Sequence record: OR670491 | Length of the DNA: 64,000 bases | Origin: Escherichia phage vB_EcoM_JNE01 | Strand: one strand, 5' to 3' | Shown: piece after piece, positions 223 to 37,032 of the stretch | Numbering within the stretch: position 1 is the stretch's first letter | Layout: each line of letters begins with the position of its first letter | Notes under the pieces: generated by a model | Told to the model about the DNA's origin: nothing | The model's input: the letters and a program-made list of their open reading frames with translations, nothing else | Databases searched by the model: none | Program-made: the position numbers and the translations under genes

Positions 223-253
223 AAAGGGAGAACATATGTTCTCCCTTTTTTAT
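223..253. terminator. bidirectional intrinsic terminator
   Basis: Perfect 20-nt palindrome GGGAGAACAT/ATGTTCTCCC flanked by A-run upstream and TTTTTT downstream; lies between convergent thyA and the minus-strand fiber gene. Confidence 0.7.
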
Positions 254-2217
254 TATCTTAATGTTACCAATGTTCTTCCAGCAAACCTTACATCAGGTGA
301 AGAAGGGATGCTAAAGACCACGTTAGTGCCGTTAAACGTCACGCTATCGACCTCAACTCGTGTATACACACCAGTACTCACTAGTTCCTGAATCTCTGCT
401 GTAACGATGTTACTGGCTGTTACAGTGAGTGTATAGTAGTCACCACTAAGCACCCATGCAGACGCAGTGAATGGGTCAGTACGAACAGAACCAGAACCGA
501 TTGGAACCCACTGTCCTTGTACTTTTTGCATTGATGTACGTTCGGTGTTGGAGTATGCAATCATACCATCTACACCTACACTGTTATCAATAGTAGCTAG
601 TACTGGTAATTGAATACCATAACGGTTGAAACGTGTACGAATAGTACCATTATCAAGAATAGTTACGTCAGCGTAATTACCCATAGATACTTTTAAATCA
701 GCACTTAGCAATTGAATAGTTGATTGGTTAGCTGTACTTTCTAAAGTAAAGATACCACTTTCCATTAGATTAAGATTTTTGAATCTATTACTTGCAGCAT
801 TGAATACGGTATTAGCTGCAAAAGTACTTACACCATTGATAGTAACTGTATCAGTATTAGCATCACCTAAAACAGTATTACCTTTAACGTTCAGGTTACC
901 ACTTGCTGTAATGTTAGTTACGTTCAAACCACCACTAAGAGTAGTTGCACCATCAACTGTCAAATCACCATGAAGTACTGTAATACCATTTCTAAATTCA
1001 GCTTGAACTTTGTTCATTGAACTTAGTGAGATAATATTACTATCACCACTAATACCTACGTTAGTATTAGTTGCATTATCAAAACGTATAGTTGGAGTAG
1101 CTGCTGGTGTTGTATTTGAATAGTAAAGTACTAATGCACCATTAGTTACACGTACACGTTCAGTTCCATTAGTCGTGAAACCAATAGTATCATCTTGTGG
1201 ATGGAAAATACCAGTATTCGGGTCAGACCATTTGGCTGGATCATTACCTGGGTTTGTTATTGGATCAAATGCGTTATTGTTAAATGACAATGCTGGAGCA
1301 GAGGCTGTACCATATGTTATACCAAAACGACCTGCACCTTTAGTTCCATCGTCATACATGGAATCACCATCACGACGAAGACCTTCAACTGCAATGTTAT
1401 CAAGCATAGTTTGAACAGTACTGGAGTTTTTAACGAACTCACGATTGTTTGCAATCATTACTGTATTATCATATAATACTGAAGCCGCTGCAATACTTGC
1501 TCTTGATTGACGCAAACGAATGTTTTTAGTATCAGTTATAATAATCCAGTCACCATCAGAAAGTGCGGTTTGGTTCATAGGTGAACCACTAGCAAATGCG
1601 TTTGTCAAATCAGTGTCTTGTGCAAGATTAACTAAACCAGTGTGACCTGTGGATGGAATTGAAGCAGTTACAATACGAGCAAATGCATAACTTACTAGTT
1701 TAGAACCAGCAACGATTGGATTGGAATCAACGTAATACATTATTTGAATCCAGTTCCCTTGACCAGTTGGGTTGGTAGGCGTAAATGTTACTGGACTTGT
1801 AGCTGGACTGTTTGCTTCAAAGTGAGCTTGTGCCGCGTCCATGATACCACGAACAACATAATAATCACCTTTAATACTTTCAGCAGGGGCTGGAAGTGGG
1901 CTTTGTGTTAGTGGAGGATCAATATCATCTTCAATAGGTGAATATGTACCAACGAATTGAAGACCACTGGTAATTGAATCAGGTAATTGTGAAGTTAATA
2001 GTTTACCATTGTTATCTAAGTTAGCAAATCTTCTATATGAAACCGTCCCATCTTCAAAATCAAGTACACCTTCAAACGCTTTCCATTCTTGGTTGTATCG
2101 AAACATACCAGACCTGATAACATCAGTTGTTTGTTTAGTTGGTGCTTTAGGTAATTCTAGAAAGGATTTACTATCTATAATTACACCGCCATCACCTCTA
2201 ATTCGATTTATACTCAT
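253..2217 (-). CDS. tail fiber protein (654 aa)
   Basis: Long ORF with GAGGAAA RBS before ATG; Gly/Thr/Asn/Ser-rich beta-structure-type sequence with repetitive VTxNGxxT segments typical of phage fibers; sits in fiber cluster. Confidence 0.6.
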   Translation of the reverse strand: MSINRIRGDGGVIIDSKSFLELPKAPTKQTTDVIRSGMFRYNQEWKAFEGVLDFEDGTVSYRRFANLDNNGKLLTSQLPDSITSGLQFVGTYSPIEDDIDPPLTQSPLPAPAESIKGDYYVVRGIMDAAQAHFEANSPATSPVTFTPTNPTGQGNWIQIMYYVDSNPIVAGSKLVSYAFARIVTASIPSTGHTGLVNLAQDTDLTNAFASGSPMNQTALSDGDWIIITDTKNIRLRQSRASIAAASVLYDNTVMIANNREFVKNSSTVQTMLDNIAVEGLRRDGDSMYDDGTKGAGRFGITYGTASAPALSFNNNAFDPITNPGNDPAKWSDPNTGIFHPQDDTIGFTTNGTERVRVTNGALVLYYSNTTPAATPTIRFDNATNTNVGISGDSNIISLSSMNKVQAEFRNGITVLHGDLTVDGATTLSGGLNVTNITASGNLNVKGNTVLGDANTDTVTINGVSTFAANTVFNAASNRFKNLNLMESGIFTLESTANQSTIQLLSADLKVSMGNYADVTILDNGTIRTRFNRYGIQLPVLATIDNSVGVDGMIAYSNTERTSMQKVQGQWVPIGSGSVRTDPFTASAWVLSGDYYTLTVTASNIVTAEIQELVSTGVYTRVEVDSVTFNGTNVVFSIPSSPDVRFAGRTLVTLR

Positions 2218-2308: not shown

Positions 2309-3091
2309 TTAACGAGTGCGTTCTGGAATTTCTACCCCTTCATACACCCATTTTGCTGCTAACTGTAGTTGGCGAATAGGTTCATCACCTACATCTTGTA
2401 CTGCATTAATTGCAGAAACTTGTGCATCACATTCAGCGAATACTGCATCAATCATAGCAAACAATTCATCATTTAGTTGAGTCATTTCTGCTGCTGAAAG
2501 AGTTAAAATTGCATCTGCAAGATATAAAGAAACTGATTCTTTACCAGCTTGAACTTGTGTGTAATAGTTTAGAACCATTTGACGACCAGCAATATCAGTT
2601 GGAATTAAATGATCTTTGAACTTATAACCAGCGGTTGAACGTTCAGAACGTGCACTATAGGTTCTTGCTACTAGTTCACTTTGTACATCAATGAAATTTG
2701 AATCCACATAATTGTAAGTTTTAAGAGCAGTTAGTGCTTTATAATCCCCTTGTGCTTCTTCAATAAAAGTAACTTCAGGTTGACTGGAATCTTTTAATTT
2801 GACGAATTCTAGATATTCACCAATTGCGTTAGTATTCCCGACATTTTTATTTTCCAACCACCAGAAACCTTCTTCTTTACGTACATCATCATTTCCTACA
2901 GGAGCCGGAGAGTTAGGAGAAACCGAGATGCCGTATAGTGGACGAATGTCAGAATACATGTTAAAATATTCTTTCCCTTCATCTGGGGTTGCGATAGTGC
3001 GAGGCTTCAATCCTTTTACGTTAACTGGATTGGAAATGATATTTCCGAGTTCGTAATTTTCTTGAGAGCTACCCTTAACAAATGTAAACAT
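2309..3091 (-). CDS. hypothetical protein between fiber genes (possible fiber assembly or accessory protein)
   Basis: ORF track 2309..3100 begins at GTG; an ATG three codons downstream (MFTFVKG...) is preceded by AAGGTGG RBS, so start placed at 3091; no recognisable motif. Confidence 0.55.
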   Translation of the reverse strand: MFTFVKGSSQENYELGNIISNPVNVKGLKPRTIATPDEGKEYFNMYSDIRPLYGISVSPNSPAPVGNDDVRKEEGFWWLENKNVGNTNAIGEYLEFVKLKDSSQPEVTFIEEAQGDYKALTALKTYNYVDSNFIDVQSELVARTYSARSERSTAGYKFKDHLIPTDIAGRQMVLNYYTQVQAGKESVSLYLADAILTLSAAEMTQLNDELFAMIDAVFAECDAQVSAINAVQDVGDEPIRQLQLAAKWVYEGVEIPERTR

Positions 3092-3125
3092 ATAAACCAC
3101 CTTATTTTATTTTTTTTTGAATTAG

Positions 3126-3166
3126 TATCGAAAAACCAGTACTGATCATTGTGACCAGTACTGGGG
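3126..3166 (-). terminator. intrinsic terminator after giant fiber A
   Basis: Two copies of the palindrome CCAGTACTG(G) separated by 10 nt form a stem; on minus strand followed by TTTTTCG. Confidence 0.45.
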
Positions 3167-3173
3167 ACATCAA

Positions 3174-6100
3174 TTATGAAGTACGTTGAGCAATAAACAA
3201 GTCAATAACGTTACTTACACCATCATATACTGCTTGGTAGATAGTAACACTGTTCGCTGCTAGGTTCTGTTCACCATCCACAATAGAGTAAGATGGGTCA
3301 GCAGTTAGTACACGGTTACCAGTTGCATCTTGCTTCGCATACATGAAGATAGATGCAGCTTTACCACCACCAATCAGGCCAGCAATTGGTGCTAGTGTGG
3401 TGTTCTGGTCTAGAGTGATAAAGTACACACTAGTAGAGCCATCAGGAGTCCATGTACCAGCCGGAGCAACAGTACTGGAAGTAACTTGTGATGGGATAAC
3501 ATCATACTTCTTAGTAGTTACAGAAGTAGTTACAAAGTTAGCTTCGTCAGTAGTGAATACACCAGCAACTTCAATACCTTTTTCGAAAGTAGCTTTCTCA
3601 ATGAAAGTACTTGTTCCGTTAACTGTGATAACATCTGCTGCTGCATCACCTAGTGTTACGCTACCAGTGGTAGTTAGTGCACCAGATATATTTACAGCCG
3701 CTAGGGTACTTGTACCAGTTACTGCTAGAGTTGAACCGATTGTTGCAGTGCCAGAAGTTGTTAGGTTAGTAACAGAAGCTTCTGCTAGTGTTGCTTTACC
3801 AGTTACACCTAGTGTACCACCAACAGTTGCTGCACCAGTTACGCCTAAAGTAGTTCCAACAGTTACTGCACCAGTGAAGGTTCCACCAACACCACTTACG
3901 TTACCACTGAACTCACCATCAACGCCTTTAACTTTACCAGTACTGGTGATTGCACCAGAACCTAAAGTACCAGTGATTGTCGCTGCTCCACCAACTGTTA
4001 AGTTACCAGTTGATTGCATTGAACCACCTTTAACTAGGTTAGTACTTGTTAGTGATTTAACGTTTACATCAGCATTTGATTGGTCAACGTTGGCATATAG
4101 AACACCACCAACTGTAAAGTTACCAGTAGTAACAACGTTACCGTTAACTGTTAAGTTGTTGTTTTGTGATCCAACTGCACCAAATGTACCAGAGTTTGCA
4201 ATAACTGCTGCGTCAGTTGAAATGTTACCAACTGCGGATAGAGTTGCAGAAGCTTCAATTGCATATGGTTCTAGTGTTTGACCACTTACGTCGATATCGG
4301 CGTTAATGCCACCTTCAACACGTAGTTTACCAGCAATAAAAGTATCAGGGAAAATCTGAACAGTTTCAGGTTGTTCACCAACTTTAACACCAACTACTAG
4401 GTTTGCACCAGTTTTAACTGTACCAGTTTCTAGTGAACCAGAAGTTACTTTGCCAGTTACTTTTGCATCAGCAGCTACAGTTAGTGCATCACCGGAAGCG
4501 GAGGACAATGCCAATGATGGAGCAGAAACAGCACCAGTTACACCTAAAGTGCCACCAACAGTTGCGTTACTTGTTACACCTAGTGTACCACCGAATGTAC
4601 CGTTTGTATCACTGTGGATAGCAGCAGAAGTAGACAAACTCTTCGCAACGATATCAGATGTTGTTAGGTCTAAACCACCAGCAGGAGTAAATGTACCGCT
4701 TACTGTTAGGTCATTAGTGAAAGATGAATTACCAGCCATAGTTAAACCAGCAGTACCAACAATACTTGTTGCAGAAACTGCACCAGTATCTAGTGAACCA
4801 GTTGTTGCTTTACCAGTTACACCTAAAGTATTACCTAAAGTAACAGCACCAGTTGTAGATAAAGTACCAGCTACAATTGCATTACCTTTAACATCAAGAC
4901 CAGTACCAGAAGCATTGGACAATGTTAGGGACGGAGCAGAAACTGCACCAGTTACACCTAGTGTACCAGCGATAGTTGAGTCACCACCAATAGTTGCCCC
5001 CGCAGTGCTCTTAATTGTGGTTGCCACGTCAAGGCTGTTTGCAGTAATATCAGAAGTAGATAGATCCAAACCACCCACTGGAGTGAATACACCGTTAACC
5101 GTTACAGCATCAGCAAATGTTGCAGCACCAGTTACACCTAGTGTACTACTAAATGTTCCAGATGTTGCAGAAACTGCACCAGTATCTAACGAACCAGTAG
5201 TTGCTTTACCTGTTACACCAAGAGTACCACCAACAGTTTGATTTCCGGTAACAGTAAGAGTCCCAGTTTGTGCATCAACAGTTGTGATTTTACCTGAACC
5301 ACTGATATCAGTAGTAGATACACCACCACTTAGAGTACTCAAACCAGTTGCTTTTAGGGTTGTCGCAACATCAAGACTGTTTGCTGTAATGTCTGCACCA
5401 CTTAGATCCAAACCACCTTCAGGAATAAATTCACCTTTAACAGTTAGTTTTTGAACTACTGAATCACCAGTTACGGTTAGAGCAGAAGAAGTTAAACCAC
5501 CGTTCAAAGTTGCTGCACCAGTAACACCAAGTGTACCACCGACAGCCGCATTAGAAGTTACTGAAGCGTTTTCTAGAGTTGCAGTACCGGAGATATTTGC
5601 ACCTTGTGCAGTGATACTACCAGTATCAACACGTACACCACCAGCTACAACTTGAATACCACCTGTATTAACAGTTAGTTTATTACCAACAGTTGCTGCA
5701 CCAGTTAGAGTGCTTGTACCAGCTACAGACAAGTTACCGGAAACGGCTGGGCTACCAGTTACATTACCAGTTGTTAGAACTAGATCAGCACCAACAGTAG
5801 TATTACCGACAGAAGCTAAAGTGTTTGCAGTTACATCAGAAGCAGATAGGTCAAATGTACCAGCTACTACCAAGTCACCACCGATATTTGCACCACCAGT
5901 AGTAGTGATTGATTTAGCACTAACATCAGTTGTTGCTAGGTCAATTGCACCTGGAGTTACAGTTCCGGTTACAGTTAAATCACCTGTTACTTTAGTGTTG
6001 CTTGCAATTTCCACACCAGTTTCGTTAGAAATGGTTGGAGTTACCAAGGAAACAGCAGTTGCTTGACCAGATACTGTTAGTGAAGTTCCAATTACTGCAT

Positions 6101-9100
6101 CTGCACTTGTGCGTAGACTTGTTAGAATTGATGGACCTTCAACAGATAGCTCAGTTGCATTAACTGCATTAATAGTTGCAGTAGTAGATTTAAGTACTGG
6201 AAGTACGTTAGCATTAACTAAGTCAGTACTTTGAATAATACCAGCAGAAGATAGTGATTTAACACTAACATCAGCAGCACTAAGATCAACAGTGCCAGCT
6301 ACTACTAAGTTACCACCAATGTTTGCACCTTCGGTTGTTGTAATAGATTTAGCACTAACATCAGTAGTGGTTAGGTCAATAGAACCTGGAGTTACGGAAC
6401 CAGTCACTACTAGATTACCAGTTACGGTAGTGTCGTTTTTAATTTCAACACCAGCAGCATTTGCAATTGATGGAGTAGTTAGTGAACCAACGGTAGCATT
6501 ACCAGTTACATCAAGAGTAGTACCCACAGATACTGCACCAGTAGCATCGAGTGAAGCTACATTAGATGCACCACTAACATTTAGTGCGGTTACATTTGCA
6601 GTTCCAACAGTTGCTGTGGTACTATTAAGTACTGGAAGTACGTTTGCATCAGTTGCGTTAGTAGAAGTTACAATACCTGGAGTAGTTAAAGATTTAACAC
6701 TAACGTCTGCTGCACTAAGATCAACTGTACCAGCTACTACTAAGTTGCCACCGATAGATGCACCAGCAGTTGTAGATATGGATTGAGCACTAACATCAGT
6801 CGTTGATAGATCAATTGCACCTGGGGTAAGTGTACCAGTGACAGTTACATTATCAGTAAAAGTAGTGTTACCGTTAATAGTTGGTGAAGTTAGAGTTCCA
6901 GTTGATAATGAACCAGTAGTTGCTGCACCAGTTAAATTCATAGAAGAACCAGCGATAGCTACACCTTCGATATTACCAGTTACTTTCAAAGAAGAACCAG
7001 AAATAGCTGCTGCACTAACGTTACCAGTTGCAGTGATTGCACCAGCACTTACATCGGCTAGGGTACTTGCACCAGCAACACTTAGGGTTGTGGTTACATC
7101 AACTTTATTAGGAGCAATATCAAGACCATCAACGTTAGCATCTGCTACAACACCAGTTGTAGTTCCAGTTACTACTAGGTCTTTAACTGTTACTGTTTGA
7201 CCAGTTACTGTCACATTCCCGCTAAATGCACCCGCTGCACCACTTACATCACCACTGAATGTACCGTTCACACCACTTACATTACCAGTAAATGTACCAT
7301 CAACACCGCTCACATTACCACTGAACTCACCACCAACGCCTTTTACGTTACCAGTACTGGTAATTGCTCCAGAGTTTAGTGCTCCAGTCACGTTAGCAGT
7401 TCCACCAACGAGTAAGTTAGCATTAATAGTTGCACCACCAGTTGATTCTAATGATGAAGATTTAATTTCACCAGCCGCAATAACGGAATTAGGTGTTAAA
7501 TCCTGACCACTCACATCAACTGTTAGACCAGTTACGACACCAGTGAAGTCTACATCATTAAGAATGGTTTTACCATTAACTTTTAGACGAGGTGTTGCTG
7601 GGCTTTGTGTTGAGTTACCTAGAATTTCTACATAATCTAATTTGTTTAGACCTTTACCTGTAATACCATAGGTCGCAAGAGACTCATCACCAAAAGTTGC
7701 AGTTTTTTGTACAGTAAGAGTTACCGGAGCCATAGATTCAGACTGGATTTCGTTCTGTAGTAGAACTGTTGGACGTTGACCTGCTGCGGAATAACCAAAA
7801 CCTAGTTTAACGTCAGCATTTGCAACGTTTTGACCAAGGGTAATGGCTTTAACAGTTGCAGTTGTGTTGTTACCAGTGATGTTTGCACCTAATGTAACTG
7901 CTCCGTTAAGACCAGTAGCACCACTTACGTTCAAACTGGTAGCCTGGATATCATCTAAATCAAATGTACCACCTAATGTTCCAGAAACATTGATGTTATT
8001 GAAGTTTGCAGTACCAGTACTTTCAATATTAGGTAATGTTGCAGTTCCAGTTACTTCTAAATCAGTGACCTTAGTTAGTCCTTTGGTTACTTCGAGTAAA
8101 GGAGTACTAGGATCTTGTGTTAAGTTACCACTAATAGTTACATAATCTAATTTGTTTAGACCTTTACTTGCGATACTATAGGTGGAAAGAGATTCATCAC
8201 CAAACGTCGCACTTTTTAGTACGTTTAGGTTAGTTGGTGACATTAATTCGGTTTGAATTTCGTTTTGTAGAACTACAGTTGGGCGAAGCCCTGCCGCTGA
8301 ATATGTAAAACTCAAGCGATCAGTACTACTTGCTGCGTTAGCACCCAATTTAATGTCTTTGAATGTCGCAGTTGTATTGATACCAGTGATGTTTGCACCT
8401 AATGTAACTGCTCCGTTAAGACCAGAAGCACCACTTACGTTCAATGAAGTTGCATTAATGTCATCAAGACTGAATGTACCACCAAGAACACCATTTATGT
8501 TAATATCATTGAAGTTAGCTGTACCAGTACTTTCAATATTAGGAATAGTAGCAGAACCAGTTACTTCGAAATCAGTTACTTTAGTTAAACCTTTAGTAAC
8601 TTCAAGTAAAGGAGTAGTTGGTGATTGAACTGTGTTACCACTAATAGATACATAATCTAATTTGTTTAGACCTTTACCTGTGATACCGTAAGTATCGAGA
8701 GACTCATCACCAAATGTTGCAGTTTTGAGTACGTTTAGGTTTGTTGGTGACATTAATTCAGATTGAATTTCGTTCTGTAGAACAACTGTAGGTCGTTGAC
8801 CTGATGCTGAATAGGTAAAACTCAAGCGATAAGTACTGCTTGCTGAGTTTGCACCCAATTTAATGTCTTTGAATGTCGCAGTACTATTGATACCAGTAAC
8901 GTTAGCACCAAATGTAACAGCACCTTGTAAACCAGAAGCACCACTTACGTTCAATGTAGTTGCATTAATGTCATCAAGGCTGAATGTACCGCCTAGTGTA
9001 CCACTAATATTAACATCTTTGAAGTTTGCTGTACCAGTGCCAGTGATAGTTTCACTAGAAATTGCAGTGATTGTTGCTTCATTTGCAGTTAATTTATCAA

Positions 9101-9536
9101 AAGCAGCAGTTGTGCCTACACCAGCAGTGATGTTACCATCAAATTGTGTAGTTCCGGTGACTTCTAATTGGTCAACTGTTGTGTTTTTAAGAACAGCAGA
9201 ACCAGCAGTTTGATTAATATCGTTGGCAAATGACGCAGTGCCGTTAAAAGATGCATTGGAGTTAACAGTTGCAGTATCAGAACCGACAACAGCATCACCA
9301 ATTACAGAATTACCTTTAATATCTACGCCACCATTAAGAGATGCTTTACCAGCTACGTCTAGGGTAGAAGTGATATTAGCAGTTGCTGCTTCAATTGCAG
9401 TAAATGTTGCATTTGCGAAAGAAACTGTACCATTTACGGTTACATTTTTCTCAAATACAGCATTACCTTTAACCAAAAGATCTTTATTTACCGTAGCACC
9501 ACCAGTAACATCTAGATCCGTCTTTATAGAGTACAT
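3174..9536 (-). CDS. giant tail fiber protein A (2120 aa), paralog of the fiber at 9675..14561
   Basis: Single ORF; N-terminus MYSIKTDLDVTGG... and C-terminus ...TLDQNTTLAPIAGLIG...FIAQR shared with neighbouring gene; Thr/Gly/Val/Ser-rich repetitive beta-type sequence; three tandem ~170-aa repeats; GGAGGG RBS. Confidence 0.8.
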   Translation of the reverse strand: MYSIKTDLDVTGGATVNKDLLVKGNAVFEKNVTVNGTVSFANATFTAIEAATANITSTLDVAGKASLNGGVDIKGNSVIGDAVVGSDTATVNSNASFNGTASFANDINQTAGSAVLKNTTVDQLEVTGTTQFDGNITAGVGTTAAFDKLTANEATITAISSETITGTGTANFKDVNISGTLGGTFSLDDINATTLNVSGASGLQGAVTFGANVTGINSTATFKDIKLGANSASSTYRLSFTYSASGQRPTVVLQNEIQSELMSPTNLNVLKTATFGDESLDTYGITGKGLNKLDYVSISGNTVQSPTTPLLEVTKGLTKVTDFEVTGSATIPNIESTGTANFNDININGVLGGTFSLDDINATSLNVSGASGLNGAVTLGANITGINTTATFKDIKLGANAASSTDRLSFTYSAAGLRPTVVLQNEIQTELMSPTNLNVLKSATFGDESLSTYSIASKGLNKLDYVTISGNLTQDPSTPLLEVTKGLTKVTDLEVTGTATLPNIESTGTANFNNINVSGTLGGTFDLDDIQATSLNVSGATGLNGAVTLGANITGNNTTATVKAITLGQNVANADVKLGFGYSAAGQRPTVLLQNEIQSESMAPVTLTVQKTATFGDESLATYGITGKGLNKLDYVEILGNSTQSPATPRLKVNGKTILNDVDFTGVVTGLTVDVSGQDLTPNSVIAAGEIKSSSLESTGGATINANLLVGGTANVTGALNSGAITSTGNVKGVGGEFSGNVSGVDGTFTGNVSGVNGTFSGDVSGAAGAFSGNVTVTGQTVTVKDLVVTGTTTGVVADANVDGLDIAPNKVDVTTTLSVAGASTLADVSAGAITATGNVSAAAISGSSLKVTGNIEGVAIAGSSMNLTGAATTGSLSTGTLTSPTINGNTTFTDNVTVTGTLTPGAIDLSTTDVSAQSISTTAGASIGGNLVVAGTVDLSAADVSVKSLTTPGIVTSTNATDANVLPVLNSTTATVGTANVTALNVSGASNVASLDATGAVSVGTTLDVTGNATVGSLTTPSIANAAGVEIKNDTTVTGNLVVTGSVTPGSIDLTTTDVSAKSITTTEGANIGGNLVVAGTVDLSAADVSVKSLSSAGIIQSTDLVNANVLPVLKSTTATINAVNATELSVEGPSILTSLRTSADAVIGTSLTVSGQATAVSLVTPTISNETGVEIASNTKVTGDLTVTGTVTPGAIDLATTDVSAKSITTTGGANIGGDLVVAGTFDLSASDVTANTLASVGNTTVGADLVLTTGNVTGSPAVSGNLSVAGTSTLTGAATVGNKLTVNTGGIQVVAGGVRVDTGSITAQGANISGTATLENASVTSNAAVGGTLGVTGAATLNGGLTSSALTVTGDSVVQKLTVKGEFIPEGGLDLSGADITANSLDVATTLKATGLSTLSGGVSTTDISGSGKITTVDAQTGTLTVTGNQTVGGTLGVTGKATTGSLDTGAVSATSGTFSSTLGVTGAATFADAVTVNGVFTPVGGLDLSTSDITANSLDVATTIKSTAGATIGGDSTIAGTLGVTGAVSAPSLTLSNASGTGLDVKGNAIVAGTLSTTGAVTLGNTLGVTGKATTGSLDTGAVSATSIVGTAGLTMAGNSSFTNDLTVSGTFTPAGGLDLTTSDIVAKSLSTSAAIHSDTNGTFGGTLGVTSNATVGGTLGVTGAVSAPSLALSSASGDALTVAADAKVTGKVTSGSLETGTVKTGANLVVGVKVGEQPETVQIFPDTFIAGKLRVEGGINADIDVSGQTLEPYAIEASATLSAVGNISTDAAVIANSGTFGAVGSQNNNLTVNGNVVTTGNFTVGGVLYANVDQSNADVNVKSLTSTNLVKGGSMQSTGNLTVGGAATITGTLGSGAITSTGKVKGVDGEFSGNVSGVGGTFTGAVTVGTTLGVTGAATVGGTLGVTGKATLAEASVTNLTTSGTATIGSTLAVTGTSTLAAVNISGALTTTGSVTLGDAAADVITVNGTSTFIEKATFEKGIEVAGVFTTDEANFVTTSVTTKKYDVIPSQVTSSTVAPAGTWTPDGSTSVYFITLDQNTTLAPIAGLIGGGKAASIFMYAKQDATGNRVLTADPSYSIVDGEQNLAANSVTIYQAVYDGVSNVIDLFIAQRTS
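7470..9040. repeat. three tandem ~510-bp coding repeats inside fiber A
   Basis: Motif CATAATCTAATTTGTTTAGACC recurs at about 7631, 8141 and 8651 (period 510); encoded protein repeats TGTANFxDxNxSGxLGGTFxLDDI... x3. Confidence 0.8.
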
Positions 9537-9575
9537 ATAGTTCCCTCCATTTTGGGTTATTAAAATACCATGTTT

Positions 9576-9592
9576 ATGTTTATATATTTAGT
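9576..9592 (-). promoter_or_regulatory. putative late promoter of fiber A (CTAAATATATAAAC)
   Basis: Minus strand reads AACTAAATATATAAACA 40-50 nt upstream of ATG; same block found upstream of fiber B. Confidence 0.4.
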
Positions 9593-9629
9593 TGAATTAA
9601 TTGTTTTGGAACTCTCAAAGATAATTATT

Positions 9630-9663
9630 TAGGGAAAAGAAAAAGCCAACACGAGGTTGGCTT
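9630..9663 (-). terminator. intrinsic terminator after fiber B
   Basis: AGCCAAC-loop-GTTGGCT hairpin; minus strand then TTTTTCTTTT. Confidence 0.6.
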
Positions 9664-9674
9664 TCTTTTATTTG

Positions 9675-12600
9675 TTATACACGTTGAGCAATGAAGGTAT
9701 CAAATACAGTACTGAAACCATCATAAACAACTTGAATGATACTAACTTGGTTCACAACTGAACTTACCTGACCAGATACAACTGCGTATTCAGCAGGGAT
9801 AGTTAGAACAGCATCACTAACAGTTGGTGTTACGTAAATGTATACAGAACACGCTTCACCGCTACCGATTAGACCAGTAATTGGTGCTAGGGTAGTGTTT
9901 TGGTCAAGAGTTAGACGATATACGTTACTAGAACCATCTGGAGTCCATGTACCGGATACAGAAGCGGTAGAAGCTACTACTGAAGTTGGTAGAACAGAGT
10001 ATTTCTTAGTGATTACAGTACTGGTTGTGAAATCAGCATCAGTAGTGTTCAATGCACCAGTCACCGTTAGGGCTTTATCAATCACAACGTTCTCTTTGAA
10101 GGTTGCAGTGCCATTAACAGTGATAGTATCAGCGGCAGCATCACCTAGAACAACATTACCATTAGCGGTTAATGTACCAGTAAAGGTTGCAGAACCAGTT
10201 ACGGCTACACTTGCTAGTGTTGCTAAACCTGTTGTAGTTATGGATGCAGTTGAAATTTCACTTTGAACGCTTAAGTTTTCAGAGAATGTTGCTGCACCTG
10301 TAACGGCTACACCACCATTCAGACTCGCTAGTCCAGTTACTGCAAGGGTAGAGCCGGTTTCTAAACTTCCACCAGTAATTTTACCAGTTGCAGTAATTGT
10401 TGTACCAGCAGAAATTGAAGTCCCCGCATTCACATTGTTGGTTGCAGTTAAAGATTTAACAGCTACATCAGAATCCGCTTGGTTCAATTGTGCGTTTAGT
10501 ACTCCTGTTACTGTGAAGTCACCGTTGGTTACAACGTTACCATTTACGGTTAGGTTGTTGTTTAGTGAACCAGAATCACCAATTGTTGCTGCTTTAGCAA
10601 TCATGGTTGCACCAGAAGTGATGTTACCAACTGCACTAACAGTTGAATCAGCCGCAATTGCGAATGGTTCTAATGTTTGACCGCTTACATCGATATCGGC
10701 GTTAATACCACCATCAACACGTAGTTTACCAGCAATATATGTATCAGGAACAATATGAACTGTTTCTGGTTGAACTGCTAGAGGTGTGCCAACTGTAAAT
10801 GATGTACCAGTTTTCACTGCACCACTTGCGGTTAGATCTGCAACGGTTGTTGCTCCAGTCACACCTAGTGTACCACCAACTGTAGTATTACCAGTAGAAG
10901 ATAAAACTCCTGCCCCGACAGTTCCAGATGCAGTTAATGATGTTGCATTGATGTCTGCTGTTGATATTCCACCACTCAATGTACTCAAACCAGTAACACT
11001 TAAAGTAGTTGATGAAGACAAGCTATTTGCAGAAACATCAGCACCAGTTAGATCCAAACCACCTTGTGGAATCAATGTACCTTCAACTGTTACGTTACCT
11101 TTTGCCACGGTTGCACCAGTTACTTCCAAAGACGCAGCAGTTGCTTTACCAGAGGTAGATAGAGTTGAAACACTTGTTGCACCAGCTTGTACTACACCAA
11201 GAGTTGAGGTTCCAGTAACACCAAGAGTGGTTGTTACGGATGCACTTGATAGGGTACTTGCCCCAGCAGTTAGCCCAGCAAGAGATGTTGTACCAGTTAC
11301 GCCTAGTGTACCACCAACGGTAGTATTACCAGAGATTACAGGAGCACCAGTAATTACCCCAGTTGTTAGTACTAAATCAGCACCAACAGTTGTGTTTCCA
11401 GTACTTGCTAGTGTTGCAGCTTGTAGGTTTGTACCACTTAGGTCAAATGTACCATCAACTGTTAAATTACCTGCAACGTGTGCATTACCAAGAGAGTTAA
11501 GTGACTTAACAGAAACATCAGTAGTGCTTAGATCAATTGCACCAGCAGTTAAAGTACCAGATGCATGGAAATCACCAGTAACATTTGTGGATTTTGAAAT
11601 TTCAACTGTTGCACCAGGAGCCGTGAAGGATGCACCACTAATTGCACCAGTTGCCGCTACAGAACTAGCATCAATTGCAGTTGCAGATACAGCAGCAAGG
11701 GTAGAAGCACCAACAACATCAAGTGAGCCAGAAGCAGAAATATTACTTGTATTAATATTAGCTACAGTACTTTCCCCAGATACATTCAATGTTGTTGCTT
11801 TTGCTGCACCTAATGTACTATCGGTTGAAGATAGTTTAGGGAATGTATTGGTTTTTAATGCATCAGTACTAACAAAACTTAATGCAGATACATCTGCACC
11901 ACTTAAATCAACAGTACCTGCAACAGATAGGTTTCCACCGATAGTAGCACCTTCAGTTGTGGTTATTGAGTTAGAAGTTATGTCAACTGAGCTTAGGTCA
12001 AGACCACCTTGCGGGGTAAAGACACCTGTTACGGTTAGGTCTTTAGCTGCTACTACATTACTAGCAAGATTCAATGTTCCCGCACCAGACGCTCCAGCTT
12101 GAACCGTAGGAGTTGTTACAGAAGTTGAAATTGTAGCAGTTGTAGAAGATAAACGTGAACCAGAAACAACACCAGTACTGGTCAATGTTCCAACTTTTGC
12201 AGCACCAGTAGTTGTGATAGTACCACCAGATACATCACCGGAAGCTACTACAGAAGATGCGTTAACAACACCAAAGGTACTTGGGTTAGTTGCAGTAATA
12301 GATTTTGCAGTTACATCAGCAGAACTAAGATCGATAGCACCAGATACAGCAAGAGAACCACCTACGGTTACGTTTCCAGTAGTAGTTAAAGATGCAGCAC
12401 TTACATCAGTAGTACTTAAATCAATCCCACTTGGAGTTAGTGTTCCAGTGATCGTAACATCATTAGCAAATGTAGTATTCCCACTGATAGTTGGAGCAGT
12501 TAGTGAACCAACAGTCGCAGCACCAGTTACTTCTAAAGAACCAGCAGTTGCTTTACCGGACACACCTAGTGAATTACCTAAAGTAACAGCACCAGTTACA

Positions 12601-14561
12601 CCTAATGTACCACCAACTGTAGCATTACTCACTACATGAAGACCAGTACCAGATGCACCATTTAGTGTTAGATACCCTGCCGATGCTGCACCAGATATAG
12701 TTGCTGAACTTGCATTAACAGCAGCCAATGTGGTTTCACCAGCAACACTTAGTGTTGTTGTTACATCAACTTTATTAGGAGCAATATCAAGGCCATCTAC
12801 GTCGGCTACGGCGGTTACACCAGTTGTGGTTCCAGTTACTACTAGATCCTTAACAGTTACTGTTTGGCCTTGTACGGTTACATTACCATCTAAAATACTA
12901 TCTCCAGTTACACCTAATGTTCCACCAAGAGACGTTCCACCTGTGACTTCTAGATAGCCAGCAGTGGTTTTGCCAGTAGAAGTTAATGTTGTTCCCTGAA
13001 TACCAGACGTTGCAGTTACGGAGTTAGGAGTTAGATCCTGCCCACTAACATCAACAGTTAGGCCAGTAACAGTTCCTGTGAATTCTACATCACCTAGAAC
13101 CGATTTACCAGCAACAGAAAGTTGTGGAGTTCCTGGAGCTTGAGTAGCGTTACCAGCGATTTCTAGATAATCTAGTTTGTTTAGACCTTTACCTGTGATA
13201 CCATATGTTGCTAGTGAAGCATCACCAAAGGTTGCAGTTTTCTGAACAGTTAATGTAGCAGGAGACATTAATTCAGATTGAATTTCGTTCTGTAGAAGAA
13301 CAGTTGGGCGTTGACCAACGGCAGTATAAGCAAAACCAACTTTGGTATCAGCACTTGCAGATGCTGGACCTAGGTTTAGTGCTTTAATATTTGCAGTAGT
13401 GTTAGTACCACTGATATTACCACCTAGAGTTACAGAACCTTCAAGACTAGTTAGGCCAGATACTTTTAGTGTTTGTGCTTCGATATCACCTAAACTGAAT
13501 GTACCACCAAGAACACCACTTACGTTAATGTTATTGAAGTTTGCAGTGCCAGTACTTTCAATATTAGGAATAGTAGCAGAACCAGTTACTTCGAAATCAG
13601 TTACTTTAGTTAAACCTTTAGTAACTTCAAGTAAAGGGGTAGCTGGTGATTGAACTGCGTTACCACTAATAGTTACATAATCTAATTTGTTTAGACCATT
13701 ACCAGTGATACCAAAAGTACTTAAAGATGCATCACCAAAAGTAGCAGACTTAAGAACAGTTAGGGATGCTGGAGACATTAGCTCGGACTGAATTTCGTTT
13801 TGTAGAATTACAGTTGGGCGTTGGCCTGGTGCGGTATAAGTGAAGCTTAAACGGTAAGCACTGCTTGCGGAGTTAGCACCGATTTTGACATCTTTAAATG
13901 TTGCAGTTGTGTTGATACCAGTGATGTTCGCACCTAGAGTAACAGCACCCTGTAGGCTACTTTGACCAGACACAGTTAGGGTAGTTGCGTTTACATCAGA
14001 AAGACTGAATGCACCACCTAGTGTACCACTTATGGTAACATCGTTAAAGCTGGCTGTACCAGTACTATTAATGTCGGTTGCATTTAAAGTTGCAATAGTT
14101 GCTTCGTTTGCAGATAGTTTATCAAATGCAGCAGTAGTTCCTGCGTCAGCATTAATATTACCTTTAAAAGTTGAAATTCCATCAACTGATAGTGAGTCAA
14201 CAGATGTTGCTTTCAAATCAACATTACCAGCAGTTTGACGAATATTACCACCAAATGAAACACCAGAGTTAAAAGTTGCTGCGGAGTTAATTGTAGCAGT
14301 ATCAGTACCTGGTGCTACTGCACCAATCACAGTGCTACCTACCACTTCAACACCACCATTAAGAGATGCTTTACCAGCTACATCTAGGGTAGAAGTGATA
14401 TTAGCAGTTGCTGCTTCAATTGCAGTGAATGTAGCATTTGCAAAAGAAACTGTACCATTTACGGTAAGATTCTTATTGAATACTGCATCACCTTTAACTA
14501 ATAGATCTTTACCGACTACAGCACCACCAGTAATATCTAGATCAGTTTTAATCGAGTACAT
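9675..14561 (-). CDS. giant tail fiber protein B (1628 aa), paralog of fiber A
   Basis: N-terminal ~80 aa and C-terminal ~60 aa nearly identical in pattern to fiber A; two tandem ~170-aa repeats; GGAGGG RBS. Confidence 0.8.
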   Translation of the reverse strand: MYSIKTDLDITGGAVVGKDLLVKGDAVFNKNLTVNGTVSFANATFTAIEAATANITSTLDVAGKASLNGGVEVVGSTVIGAVAPGTDTATINSAATFNSGVSFGGNIRQTAGNVDLKATSVDSLSVDGISTFKGNINADAGTTAAFDKLSANEATIATLNATDINSTGTASFNDVTISGTLGGAFSLSDVNATTLTVSGQSSLQGAVTLGANITGINTTATFKDVKIGANSASSAYRLSFTYTAPGQRPTVILQNEIQSELMSPASLTVLKSATFGDASLSTFGITGNGLNKLDYVTISGNAVQSPATPLLEVTKGLTKVTDFEVTGSATIPNIESTGTANFNNINVSGVLGGTFSLGDIEAQTLKVSGLTSLEGSVTLGGNISGTNTTANIKALNLGPASASADTKVGFAYTAVGQRPTVLLQNEIQSELMSPATLTVQKTATFGDASLATYGITGKGLNKLDYLEIAGNATQAPGTPQLSVAGKSVLGDVEFTGTVTGLTVDVSGQDLTPNSVTATSGIQGTTLTSTGKTTAGYLEVTGGTSLGGTLGVTGDSILDGNVTVQGQTVTVKDLVVTGTTTGVTAVADVDGLDIAPNKVDVTTTLSVAGETTLAAVNASSATISGAASAGYLTLNGASGTGLHVVSNATVGGTLGVTGAVTLGNSLGVSGKATAGSLEVTGAATVGSLTAPTISGNTTFANDVTITGTLTPSGIDLSTTDVSAASLTTTGNVTVGGSLAVSGAIDLSSADVTAKSITATNPSTFGVVNASSVVASGDVSGGTITTTGAAKVGTLTSTGVVSGSRLSSTTATISTSVTTPTVQAGASGAGTLNLASNVVAAKDLTVTGVFTPQGGLDLSSVDITSNSITTTEGATIGGNLSVAGTVDLSGADVSALSFVSTDALKTNTFPKLSSTDSTLGAAKATTLNVSGESTVANINTSNISASGSLDVVGASTLAAVSATAIDASSVAATGAISGASFTAPGATVEISKSTNVTGDFHASGTLTAGAIDLSTTDVSVKSLNSLGNAHVAGNLTVDGTFDLSGTNLQAATLASTGNTTVGADLVLTTGVITGAPVISGNTTVGGTLGVTGTTSLAGLTAGASTLSSASVTTTLGVTGTSTLGVVQAGATSVSTLSTSGKATAASLEVTGATVAKGNVTVEGTLIPQGGLDLTGADVSANSLSSSTTLSVTGLSTLSGGISTADINATSLTASGTVGAGVLSSTGNTTVGGTLGVTGATTVADLTASGAVKTGTSFTVGTPLAVQPETVHIVPDTYIAGKLRVDGGINADIDVSGQTLEPFAIAADSTVSAVGNITSGATMIAKAATIGDSGSLNNNLTVNGNVVTNGDFTVTGVLNAQLNQADSDVAVKSLTATNNVNAGTSISAGTTITATGKITGGSLETGSTLAVTGLASLNGGVAVTGAATFSENLSVQSEISTASITTTGLATLASVAVTGSATFTGTLTANGNVVLGDAAADTITVNGTATFKENVVIDKALTVTGALNTTDADFTTSTVITKKYSVLPTSVVASTASVSGTWTPDGSSNVYRLTLDQNTTLAPITGLIGSGEACSVYIYVTPTVSDAVLTIPAEYAVVSGQVSSVVNQVSIIQVVYDGFSTVFDTFIAQRV
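13060..14066. repeat. two tandem ~505-bp coding repeats inside fiber B, homologous to the fiber A repeats
   Basis: TCTAATTTGTTTAGACC recurs about 505 bp apart (near 13170 and 13680); stretches such as GGAATAGTAGCAGAACCAGTTACTTCGAAATCAGTTACTTTAGTTAAACC are shared with fiber A around 8530-8600. Confidence 0.75.
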
Positions 14562-14612
14562 TTAGTTCCCTCCATTTGAATGATTATAAACATAACCATT
14601 CTCGTTAATATG

Positions 14613-14623
14613 TATATATTTAG
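14613..14623 (-). promoter_or_regulatory. putative late promoter of fiber B (CTAAATATATA)
   Basis: Minus strand AAACTAAATATATACAT about 55 nt upstream of ATG; leader ends in the same AAATGGAGGGAACT RBS block as fiber A. Confidence 0.4.
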
Positions 14624-14633
14624 TTTATGATAT

Positions 14634-14665
14634 AAAAAAACCAGACCTGATACTAAAGGTCTGGT
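14634..14665 (-). terminator. intrinsic terminator after the 298-aa fiber/spike gene
   Basis: CCAGACC-loop-GGTCTGG hairpin followed on minus strand by TTTTTTT. Confidence 0.65.
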
Positions 14666-14673
14666 TATATTTT

Positions 14674-15570
14674 TTATTTACCGGATATTACAACCTTGCC
14701 ACTAAATGCAACATAGGATGTGAATATAACATTACCACTAGCATCAATTTGAGTTTCAGCAGTAACAGCTTCAAAAGGTGCAAGAGCAGTACTGCCTTGT
14801 ACTTTATTACCGTATAGAGAAACGTATAGATTGTCAGGGGTTTGTTTATGATCTGCTGCTGGAATAGTTAGAGTGAATTGATCACCGGAAGCTACCCAAT
14901 CAGCCTGATTAATAAGTTTACTGTATGGTACTGTCATAGTTGTTGCTCCTATAATATTAATTTTAACACTTGCGTATTCTGAAAGCTGACCAACTACTTC
15001 TAGAGTTATATCACCAATACCAGAAACTGTAACGTTAGTTTGGAATACAGAATCCAAATCGACATCACCTGGGTCACCTTGCAATTGAACCATAATATCA
15101 GCACCGCGACCATGAATAGATTCAGGAAGAGTGTATGTATATTTGTCAGATGAACCTGGCTCTAATACAAATGCTGAAACTGGAACAGTATGTGTGGTTA
15201 CATAAGAACTATCACTACCAGGAGTAGATGATTTAAGTGGTTTCCATACACCAAGGTCTTTAATATAAATCTGAAGTGTATTTTCAGCATCAACTAGGAA
15301 ATACACATCACCATCGGTTCCCAATGCATCAGCAGGAGCTACAGTACCGCGAAGAATACCACCAGCACCACCGCCACCATGTGCGTTTAAATATCCCAAG
15401 GTTACCAGATGGGTATTAGCTGTTGGGTCAGCCGCAGAAATTGGAAGAAGACCAGTTCCTGTATAGTTTTGAATTTGCACAACACTACCATTCGTAGTGA
15501 TTTGTGCACCATTTTTACCAAGTATGAAGGTCTTCTTCATGGTTCCTTCTAAATTAGAAAAAACTGCCAT
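14674..15570 (-). CDS. tail fiber/spike protein with conserved N-terminal anchor domain (298 aa)
   Basis: Start moved to the ATG preceded by AAAGGAGATGA RBS (MAVFSNLEGTMKKTFILGKNGAQI...); N-terminal ~110 aa parallel the N-terminus of the adjacent tailspike (VFSNLEGTM..FILGK.GA.I). Confidence 0.7.
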   Translation of the reverse strand: MAVFSNLEGTMKKTFILGKNGAQITTNGSVVQIQNYTGTGLLPISAADPTANTHLVTLGYLNAHGGGGAGGILRGTVAPADALGTDGDVYFLVDAENTLQIYIKDLGVWKPLKSSTPGSDSSYVTTHTVPVSAFVLEPGSSDKYTYTLPESIHGRGADIMVQLQGDPGDVDLDSVFQTNVTVSGIGDITLEVVGQLSEYASVKINIIGATTMTVPYSKLINQADWVASGDQFTLTIPAADHKQTPDNLYVSLYGNKVQGSTALAPFEAVTAETQIDASGNVIFTSYVAFSGKVVISGK

Positions 15571-15584
15571 TTTAATCATCTCCT

Positions 15585-17727
15585 TTATGATAGAGTTATA
15601 TATGTTATTGGCTGTGCCGCTTTTAATAATGCACCTGCTGCTGTAGCAGTTACAATTGGGTCGGCAATGTCAACGCGGTATGCGTTTGATACTACGTAAA
15701 CTGCTCTGGTGATGTATGTTAATAAATCTTCACCATTTGCCCCAGCACCTGTAATGAGTATTTGTGTTCCAGCAGCTTTCGCATATTGGTTATCACCCCA
15801 TGATACGCCTAACGCCTCTATATATGTTTGTCCTACAACCGTTTGTCGTATGGTGTCGTATTTTCCGAAGAAAGAACCACCAACTGTTACAATATATTTA
15901 CTCCCTGACTGGTTGTGAATAATTGTACCTTGTGGGAAATAACGACCACCAGGGAACGTGTCATATGGAACATAATATTGTTCAACTACAGGTATCAGTA
16001 CTGGACCACGGTGACCAGTTCCGTCAATATCAGTTGGTACTTTAAAGTTGTTAGATGATTGGTCAATTCTATCCACATACATTTTAGCAAAACTATATTT
16101 GGATATGTTACAATCATCTTGGACTACACAGTTTGTCCAGTTTGTATATGTATATTTAGAACGGGTATACAAACCACCACCTTCACCTTCTGTTGACAAG
16201 TGTTGACCAATAACATCTAACTCTTTAGTGCGAATATCACTAAACTTAGAAGCTGATGGAAGACCACGCCATTGAATCTTAGTACAAGTTACATTGGATA
16301 ATTCAGTATTGTTTGTCCAGTTATCAGAACAAGATGTATAAACTAAAATAGTTGATTCTGGAATATACAAATTAGATAATTTAAAGTTACGTGGAGGTCC
16401 AGCAAATTTACCAGAAGTTACACCCCAGTTTATAGAAACCATACGTGTAGTTACTGATGCGTCATTTAATAGATGTCCAGTAAGACCATCGACAATAAAG
16501 TCTTTTGAACCATAAGTGATAACACCACAGGTAGTAAGGCCAGTACCAGTCGATACCAATGAGGATGGATATACCTCGTTATCTAAAATTTTAAAATCTT
16601 TACCAACTTCAACGTGAATACACTGACGAACGTTATAAACTCTATTGTTTTTAATAACAAAGTTTTTAACATATTGTGAATCAGGAGCATCAACGTCATA
16701 TGGACCAGAACCCGCTACCCCAATTCCTATACCCCAGTTTGATAATGGGATTGGTGCATTAGTACCGTCAACGTTTTCAATAATATTTCCTTCAATTACA
16801 AAACCATCAGGATAATGAGAGTTGATAACGTTTAGTTCGATTGCATCCCCATAGATATCGTGAATATGGTTATAAGAATAACGCCCTACTGTCATTTTTT
16901 CACCCGTGCCTTGTTGAAGAACTCCATACTTACAAAGAGTCATTTCATTAAAGCAGAAATCAATAGTGCCAGTTTGAGTCATACCTTGCATTAAAAACGC
17001 AGCAGTACTGGTAATGTTTATAAATTTATTAAAATAAAATTTACCATCACCACCAAAGAATTTAAGATAACAACCAGTTAATGTAGCAAATTGTATATGG
17101 CAGTTGATTACAGAAATCATAGTACCGCCGTTACCTGTTATTGTTCCACCAAACCAAGTTATATCTTCCAAGTATAAGGCTGTTTTAATTCTATAATTAC
17201 CTTTACCTTGAACTTGAATTTTATTCTCTTTTGCATATACTGCACAGGCATTTACTGCCGCAGTGTCATCTGTTTCACCATCACCTGCTGCCCCAAACTC
17301 TTCAGGAGTTACATAGAACTGTGCTTGTTGAAGTGTTCCTCCTGTTATCAATCCAATATAATCTCCGTCCGTTAACACTTGACAAAATATCTTTATTAAC
17401 GTATAGTGATTTTACCCATTTACCATCAATTTTTAGAAATATATCAACAATCCCTTCACTGTTAGTTTGGAAATATGTATAATTATTTTTACCGATATCA
17501 TCTGAAGGGATGGCTTCACCAAACATTACGGTTGGGTGATCTTCTAGATACTTAACATTGACAGCAGAATCGGCATCAACCGCAGACCCTACTTTAACTG
17601 GTAGAAATTTTTCACCAAATGAATCCTTTATTGAAATGGAATCATCTGAAAAACTAATCAAGGCTCCTTTTTTACCAAGGATGAATGAGGGCTGCATGGT
17701 TCCTTCTAAATTAGAAAAAACTGACAT
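15585..17727 (-). CDS. tailspike with pectate-lyase-type beta-helix (depolymerase-like); N-terminal anchor domain and enzymatic domain in different frames (apparent +1 frameshift near 17380-17410)
   Basis: ORF 17302..17727 encodes the anchor domain (MSVFSNLEGTMQPSFILGKKGALI...); ORF 15585..17378 (+1 frame, starts only at GTG without RBS, in-frame stop 11 codons upstream) encodes ...EEFGAAGDGETDDTAAVNA..., the classic right-handed beta-helix pectate lyase/tailspike signature. Confidence 0.6.
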
Positions 17728-17741
17728 AATCAATACCCCCG

Positions 17742-26954: not shown

Positions 26955-26990
26955 AAAGAAAAGGAGAGCATATGCTCTCCTTTTTTATTA
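26955..26990. terminator. bidirectional intrinsic terminator
   Basis: AGGAGAGCATATGCTCTCCT perfect palindrome then TTTTTTATT; same hairpin family as 223 and 21216. Confidence 0.75.
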
Positions 26991-36998: not shown

Positions 36999-37032
36999 TG
37001 TTGGACTCCATATAATTCGTTCATTCATTTGA

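Follow-up and report, generated by a model that had tools for sequence, protein, structure and literature searches.

The 64,000-nucleotide stretch of Escherichia phage vB_EcoM_JNE01 analyzed here (sequence record OR670491; referred to below as the window) contains two adjacent, paralogous genes for giant fibers, both encoded on the minus strand (Table 1). Gene A specifies a protein of 2120 amino acids (aa) and gene B a protein of 1628 aa, and both open reading frames (ORFs) are as an earlier note on this DNA had described them. The phage is a jumbo myophage of the Asteriusvirus group. Its closest relative is Escherichia phage Turkey5 (351 kb), with 97.9% identity over the gene pair and 98.9% over 26.5 kb, and more distant matches include 121Q, PBECO4, G17, and phAPEC6. 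What the two genes share, how they came to share it, and whether they still exchange sequence are the questions considered here.

Self-comparison of the region, by a repeat search over 2500-15500, revealed extended nucleotide homology both between the genes and between units within them. Five copies of a 510-nt unit stand in register, three in gene A (A1 to A3) and two in gene B (B1 and B2), with unit-to-unit nucleotide identity of 62-84%; these are the ~170-aa internal repeats that the earlier note had counted as three versus two. Collinear homology joins the 5′ ends of the genes (offset 5025) and, further along, their 3′ parts. The 5′ thirds are 75-85% identical in nucleotides, with stretches that match exactly. 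Among the units, A1 and B1 share 83% aa identity, A2 and A1 share 84%, and A3 is closer to B2 (74%) than to A1 (64%).

The proteins have the modular layout that the earlier note proposed, namely shared ends with differing centers. The N-terminal module (N-module), which in A begins MYSIKTDL, is beta-rich with a weak bactofilin-like match; a chunk-wise comparison of A with B gave 81% aa identity over residues 1-98 and 63% over residues 102-199, and another chunking gave 82% over residues 1-85 and 58% over residues 86-170. The units are followed by a long, G/T/V-rich shaft with degenerate internal repeats, including three of 435 nt (145 aa) in gene A, and here the two proteins are only 33-52% alike. 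Resemblance returns in a penultimate module (65-71% identity; 67-77% when A is set against the other homologues compared, gene B included) and continues at a lower level in the C-terminal part (~51-56%, or 52% over the last 190 aa). The tip domain of A also terminates the full-length relatives compared and many phage tail-fiber models in BFVD. The plan of each protein is an N-module of ~170 aa, two or three units, a long and probably beta-helix-like shaft, the penultimate module, and a small predicted beta-sandwich tip.

Table 1. Features of the fiber gene pair and its borders (positions in the window)
Feature	Position	Strand	Basis or remark
Gene A, 2120-aa giant fiber	3174-9536	-	ORF; ortholog of 121Q gp571, phAPEC6 gp256, Turkey3 downstream gene
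Gene B, 1628-aa paralogous fiber	9675-14561	-	ORF; ortholog of Turkey3 upstream fiber gene
N-module of A, aa 1-170, presumed virion-attachment end	9027-9536	-	Identity to B; attachment role suggested by position
N-module of B, aa 1-170	14052-14561	-	Identity to N-module of A
Unit A1, alpha type, aa 171-340	8517-9026	-	83% aa identity to B1
Unit A2, extra unit, aa 341-510, alpha-like with omega-like patches	8007-8516	-	Mosaic of informative sites
Unit A3, omega type, aa 511-680, ends in linker into shaft	7497-8006	-	74% aa identity to B2
Unit B1, alpha type, aa 171-340	13542-14051	-	Unit comparison
Unit B2, omega type, aa 341-510	13032-13541	-	Unit comparison
89-nt identity tract, end of unit A1, candidate recent B-to-A conversion	8524-8612	-	Equals 13549-13637
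Partner of 89-nt tract in B, end of unit B1	13549-13637	-	Exact match
Three degenerate 435-nt (145-aa) shaft repeats of A	5801-6959 (approximate)	-	Contains patch 6294-6525
Penultimate module of A, aa 1701-1820	4077-4436	-	65-71% identity to B 1246-1360
Penultimate module of B, aa 1246-1360	10482-10826	-	Match to module of A
C-terminal beta-sandwich tip domain of A, last ~110 aa	3177-3509	-	AlphaFold2 predicted local distance difference test (pLDDT) 87-96
C-terminal tip domain of B	9678-10010	-	52% identity to A over last 190 aa
Leader of A: ACTAAATATATA box (9581-9592) and Shine-Dalgarno block next to ATG	9537-9592	-
Leader of B: ACTAAATATATA box (14613-14624) and identical Shine-Dalgarno block	14562-14624	-
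Terminator-like hairpin between B and A	9640-9666	-
Terminator-like hairpin after A, 13-bp stem	3136-3164	-
Terminator-like hairpin upstream of B	14639-14666	-

The likeness also extends outside the coding sequence. Homology between the 5′ ends reaches 16 nt beyond each ATG and includes an identical Shine-Dalgarno block, AAATGGAGGGAACTA, and a 12-nt box, ACTAAATATATA, occurs before these two genes and nowhere else in the window. Terminator-like hairpins bracket each gene, so that the hairpin of the preceding gene stands upstream of each leader. The earlier note had spoken of shared promoter/leader blocks; the leader part of that description stands, on the strength of the block, the box, and the 16-nt homology, but a promoter role for the box found no support. 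Other structural genes in the window bear TATAAATA-like motifs in its place.

Are these genes fiber genes? Both proteins match phrog_4549, "tail fiber," over their full length (E values of 2.7e-222 for A and 1.8e-185 for B), and they have the architecture of that type: a MYSIKTDL N-module, 170-aa units from about residue 170, a shaft, and a C-terminal domain. In Pfam, no family was found for either protein or for the separate modules, with beta-helix-type matches appearing below threshold only. The neighbors are tail and baseplate genes, encoding a colanidase-type tailspike, a tail protein, a baseplate wedge, a hub with lysozyme, and a sheath stabilizer, and they are conserved in Turkey5, Turkey3, 121Q, CRJP21, JP4, and vB_Ec-M-J. 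Two orthologs have been found in virions by mass spectrometry: the 180-kDa gp256 of phAPEC6 (PMC7247149) and CBB_226 (PMC5259590), the latter matched to the homologous CBB gene through its annotation and not its coordinates.

The unit itself is rare. A profile built from the five units and run against 1.84 billion cluster representatives retrieved only 19 proteins, and a general search for homologous proteins gave nothing beyond short fragments. In those with full-length units, the unit almost always starts at residue 165-182, behind an N-terminal module. Rak2-like representatives have the MYSIKTDL N-terminus and mostly two units, with the start at 165-182 in all but one; phiTE/rV5-like proteins have a different N-terminus and a single unit. 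Close relatives were not added by searches of complete E. coli genomes (no match), IMG/VR (121Q only), or GTDB genome contigs (none).

Unit number varies from phage to phage, as does gene number. By tblastn across 66 records, Turkey5 has five units, as in the window; Turkey3, fEgEco12, Ecwhy_1, BF17, EC.P1, WPEC3, and CMSTMSU have four; CRJP21 and JP4 have three; and 121Q, PBECO4, G17, phAPEC6, and many others have two. A single unit is detectable by tblastn in more distant jumbo phages of Erwinia, Yersinia, and Salmonella, while the profile search found mostly two in Rak2-like representatives. These totals are distributed over genes in several ways. In 121Q there is one gene of 1841 aa with two units. 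CRJP21 and JP4 also have one gene, of 2129 aa, with three units confirmed in CRJP21 and a 99.5% identical gene in JP4. In Turkey3, a pair of genes encodes proteins of 1638 and 1906 aa, both with two units, and in the window and in Turkey5 a three-unit gene is paired with a two-unit one. In vB_Ec-M-J there are again two genes, the upstream one annotated as two ORFs of 582 and 1049 aa (locus L008, 10532-15452); either the deposited sequence contains a frameshift or stop there, or the extra paralog is decaying. The comparison of repeat copy number among related isolates that the earlier note had called for thus yields one or two genes and two or three units per gene.

Which of the two genes corresponds to the single gene of 121Q? 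In its C-terminal part, gene A shares 73% identity with 121Q, CRJP21, and the Turkey3 downstream gene and 51% with gene B, and on these identities gene A is the ortholog of the 121Q gene and of the Turkey3 downstream gene. Gene B is 63-89% identical to the upstream gene of Turkey3 in several central and C-terminal blocks, which marks it as the ortholog of that gene; by position and length, it is also the ortholog of the split upstream gene of vB_Ec-M-J. Since A and B each have an ortholog in Turkey3, the duplication is older than the divergence of Turkey3 from Turkey5. In Turkey3 (locus L002, 11662-17382) and vB_Ec-M-J (locus L008, 4416-10382), the gene-A ortholog has an N-module 53 aa shorter than those of the window, 121Q, and gene B, and over the first 100 aa it matches the others at only ~60%; the group is therefore not uniform in its presumed attachment module.

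How were additional units acquired? A tree of 19 units resolves two old types, alpha, which is the first unit, and omega, which is the last. The middle unit of CRJP21 is a chimera of the two, with 95 of 113 informative sites omega-like 5′ of about unit nt 310 and 76 of 85 alpha-like 3′ of it (Fisher p of 1e-26, or 1e-33 with 121Q as reference; single breakpoint). This is the product expected when an omega unit pairs with an alpha unit of another molecule and crosses over. The extra unit of gene A, A2, is different in that it is alpha-like throughout, with short omega-like patches, and groups with A1; its expansion is therefore independent of the one in CRJP21/JP4. Unequal crossover between units adds a further unit, and a third unit was gained at least twice.

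A second kind of exchange is seen between the genes. The longest exact A/B match is 89 nt (8524-8612, equal to 13549-13637), in surroundings of ~74-80% identity, and the chance of such a match is about 1e-10 per position (0.78^89). Identity between A1 and B1 climbs from ~74% to 95-100% across the last ~150 nt of the unit. The earlier note had drawn attention to this identity, with the right range in gene A (around 8530-8600) and a range in gene B (around 13600-13660) that misses by a few tens of bases. At eight sites within 8544-8610, gene A of the window has the base of gene B, where gene A of Turkey5 has the bases of A2, Turkey3, vB_Ec-M-J, or 121Q; in the adjoining stretch, 8613-8633, the allele pattern is reversed. 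Conservation of the 89-nt tract does not extend to gene A of Turkey5, to Turkey3, or to 121Q. Flanking genes differ by ~0.1%, yet short switches between A and B alleles are present, which points to gene conversion after the window and Turkey5 split. In addition, A1 is closer to B1 than to its Turkey3 ortholog (76%), as fits concerted evolution of the unit region. That DNA identity between copies would allow unequal recombination, as the earlier note had claimed, is thus supported from two sides, by the omega/alpha chimera of CRJP21/JP4 and by the A/B allele tracts that distinguish the window from Turkey5.

The differences between the two isolates are concentrated here. Of 294 differences in the 26.5 kb, 237 fall in the two fiber genes, where they are clustered. 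Clustering is densest at 6294-6525, where 51 differences fall within 232 nt (22% diverged). For whole clusters, no allele set matched in-register paralogs at offsets of 435, 510, 1020, 4515, 5025, 5535, and 6045, and A/B allele switching is visible only site by site, at 8520-8640. No donor for the 6294-6525 patch was found in the genome, the fetched loci, or the phage collection, and it therefore probably came from an unsampled relative. Codon differences from Turkey5 are mostly synonymous, at 120 synonymous to 50 nonsynonymous in A and 32 to 7 in B, and the tip domains of both have no nonsynonymous difference at all.

Both paralogs are intact and under purifying selection: the ORFs are uninterrupted in the window and in Turkey5, and each has its own Shine-Dalgarno block and flanking hairpins. 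Taken together, we consider it probable, and hold with a good deal of confidence, that A and B are old tandem duplicates that recombine by unequal crossover and conversion and serve as separately expressed, intact fiber genes. A gp571-like gene would have been duplicated in tandem long ago, with A as the original-type ortholog and B as the extra copy. Since the 5′ thirds are 75-85% identical and contain exact stretches, general homologous recombination acts there, adding units independently in CRJP21/JP4 and in gene A and carrying alleles between A and B in short conversion tracts. The clustered, mostly synonymous divergence suggests that patches may be swapped with other, unsampled phages as well. 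Both proteins would presumably be produced and attached to the virion by the N-module that they share, giving a particle with two fiber types, alike in attachment and different in length and tip (52% identity). Several points weigh against this account. Since the upstream paralog of vB_Ec-M-J is split, certain lineages may be able to do without the extra copy. The direction of conversion was read by parsimony against outgroups that are themselves diverged, and foreign import into gene A of Turkey5 is an alternative for the patch. Finally, an AlphaFold2 model of the two-unit segment, made from an 8-row alignment, had a pLDDT of 39 and was unusable.

Could the 5′ likeness simply reflect selection to fit the same partner, with no exchange between A and B? 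The N-module is about as conserved in orthologs (78% to 121Q) as in paralogs (81%), just as such selection would have it, but 89 nt free of synonymous difference inside a ~76% region, clustered allele switches between isolates that are 98.9% identical, and the chimeric unit of CRJP21 would all be left unexplained, and we regard this explanation as improbable. It is also quite improbable, to a slightly greater degree, that B (or A) is a redundant leftover of the duplication, nonfunctional and with no role in the virion. One gene suffices in many Asteriusvirus phages, and the 582-aa and 1049-aa ORFs of vB_Ec-M-J are what decay would look like; on the other hand, B is intact in the window, Turkey5, and Turkey3, its orthologs in Turkey3 are 63-89% identical in several blocks, it keeps its own Shine-Dalgarno block and terminator-like hairpins, and its codon differences from Turkey5 (32 synonymous to 7 nonsynonymous, as given above) are those of a maintained gene.

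Two further explanations concern the repeats themselves. Because tail fibers are the usual targets of programmed diversification and the divergence between isolates is concentrated in these genes, one might suspect a diversity-generating retroelement, an invertible segment or shufflon, or slipped-strand phase variation that uses the repeats. The differences, however, are mostly synonymous and lie in the shaft and units, not the tip; simple-sequence tracts are absent, the only short repeats being degenerate coding ones of 21-36 nt; no meaningful inverted repeats lie around or inside the genes; and the annotated neighbors, which were the part of the window and genome covered, include no recombinase or reverse transcriptase. 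The probability of such a system is very small. Smaller still is that of an assembly artifact, in which mis-assembled repetitive reads would have produced the tandem pair or the third unit from one real fiber gene. The region is indeed repetitive (the 510-nt and 435-nt repeats and the 89-nt exact match), and some related records are poor, such as CMSTMSU, which is marked unverified and has fragmented ORFs. Nevertheless, the independently deposited Turkey5 has the same two genes with no indel over 11.4 kb, two genes are also present in Turkey3 and vB_Ec-M-J, both ORFs are intact, and read collapse or false duplication is unlikely because, along most of the sequence, the paralogs differ by 20-60%. 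An old, still recombining tandem pair of working fiber genes is the reading that we carry forward.

What would a change in unit number do for the phage? The earlier note had seen in it a likely mechanism of host-range diversification, a proposal that the data do not support. The units adjoin the N-terminal attachment module, far from the tip; the tips of the window and Turkey5 are identical in aa sequence; and, as mentioned, the differences between these isolates are mostly synonymous. More plausibly, changing the number of units alters the length or geometry of the fiber near its attachment end and not its receptor specificity. Any effect on host range would presumably come from the second fiber, with its 52%-identical tip.

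There is also an outside chance that the gp571-family proteins are something other than long tail fibers of the baseplate, namely the ~120-nm tail "hairs" of phAPEC6, CBB, and their relatives, although we think this doubtful. In CBB, the hairs measure 119 nm and end in small globules, and the baseplate fibers are only 29 nm (PMC5259590). The long fiber of phage phiTE has 793 aa and a predicted length of ~51 nm (PMC11972413), and scaling from that prediction gives ~90-140 nm for proteins of 1400-2120 aa. Such a length is compatible with hairs, the visible baseplate fibers of CBB being ~29 nm, and the small C-terminal beta-sandwich would fit the globule. The published descriptions consulted, a 2026 review included, do not name the hair protein. 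If the proteins were hairs, the phage would have two hair types sharing one attachment module, kept compatible by conversion, while length and tip diverged.

Several observations concern the surroundings of the pair. Downstream of A are a 263-aa protein (2309-3100, minus strand), with a subthreshold DUF4376 match and the annotation "tail fiber protein" in vB_Ec-M-J, and a 654-aa protein (253-2217, minus strand). The latter and the DUF4376 protein are annotated as structural in 121Q, and CRJP21 has one extra gene between the counterparts of the two. They are possible partners or tip components of the fibers. The colanidase-type tailspike, intact in Turkey5 (713 aa), is split in the window into ORFs of 143 aa (17302-17733) and 597 aa (15585-17378) by a 1-nt insertion around 17367, outside a homopolymer, where the window has GGACGGAG and Turkey5 has GGAGGAG; this could be a real frameshift or a sequencing error. 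At 3166, beside the hairpin downstream of A, the window has two bases (GG) fewer than Turkey5, and these two sites are the only indels between the phages in the 26.5 kb compared. Farther away, a 3346-aa ORF (26988-37028, minus strand) matches phrog_10938, "virion structural protein," over its full length and corresponds by size and gene order to gp245 of phAPEC6, a 382-kDa protein detected in virions. The plus strand also has ORFs antisense to the fiber genes (3343-4281, 4450-5241, and 10786-12102; up to 438 aa), which are most likely a by-product of a repetitive, stop-poor fiber coding strand rather than genes.

The case is one of ordinary tail-fiber evolution, on the long-known theme of duplication and recombination, and represents no new mechanism or kind of system. 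Its value lies elsewhere. It is a clean natural example of unequal crossover and conversion shaping fiber length in jumbo coliphages, which are phage-therapy candidates, and the tandem duplication and unit chimeras go unmentioned in the published descriptions consulted for phages of the group (including PMC7247149 and PMC5259590). It is chiefly in the fiber genes that two near-identical isolates diverge. As a domain, the 170-aa unit is rare, with its 19 representatives among 1.84 billion, and lacks a solved structure. Annotation can be corrected as well, since the Turkey5 record labels both fiber genes "hypothetical protein" and orthologs carry a T4 gp34 label, to which we return below.

How do these fibers compare with named systems? 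The closest likeness is to gp571 of 121Q and gp256 of phAPEC6, which share the N-module, alpha and omega units, penultimate module, and C-terminal domain, with 60-78% identity in the conserved parts. They also share the position, flanked on one side by the colanidase-type tailspike and a 300-aa virion protein and on the other by the DUF4376 virion protein. The difference is that the sole gene of 121Q encodes 1841 aa and two units, whereas here there are two genes, and the 2120-aa product of A is longer in the shaft and includes a third unit.

The only relative in the PDB is the 793-aa chain g of Pectobacterium phage phiTE (9CUY/9MJN), deposited as "putative tail fiber protein," with E values of 1e-24 to 1e-36; profile matches to 9CUY chain g gave 9.8e-34 for the unit and 7.8e-36 for the C-terminal domain. 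From its length and composition, chain g is most likely the phiTE long tail fiber. The homologous parts are one 170-aa unit (residues ~180-347) and the C-terminal domain (607-793). In contrast to the fibers described here, the phiTE fiber has a single unit, is far shorter, and has another N-terminus: phiTE/rV5-like representatives (P0014 and P0020) start MATDNAQFEAAV..., while A and B start MYSIKTDL. An alpha-helical bundle and a globular domain stand at the start of that fiber, which is trimeric and for which a long beta-helix is predicted (PMC11972413). HMMER alignments stop short of the N-module, and the phiTE-type N-terminal alpha-helical bundle, which binds the baseplate wedge and sheath initiator, was not found in A or B. 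Because only residues 14-171 of the phiTE fiber were modeled (PMC11972413), the unit and the C-terminal domain are without experimental coordinates. By analogy with this homologue, the fibers of A and B may also be trimeric.

The long tail fiber of phage T4 was considered too. One-to-one BLASTP comparisons with gp34 and gp37 gave E values of only 0.24 and 0.03, and no gp34 chain in the PDB was matched at an E value of 1 or below with single sequences or profiles, so homology to these proteins was rejected. Lacking such similarity, the label "long tail fiber proximal subunit" that many orthologs bear is unsupported at the sequence level. What does resemble gp34 is of a general sort: a long fiber gene near baseplate genes in a large myophage, with repeated domains. 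T-even tail fibers evolve modularly, by duplication and by recombination at short conserved motifs, with mosaic exchange between relatives, and T4 has reportedly extended its host range through duplications within gene 37. The segment duplicated in T4 belongs to the distal adhesin region and its host-range effect is experimental, whereas the units described here are next to the proximal end. The likeness to T-even fiber evolution lies in the process, in that recombining repeats inside fiber genes alter the number of domains.

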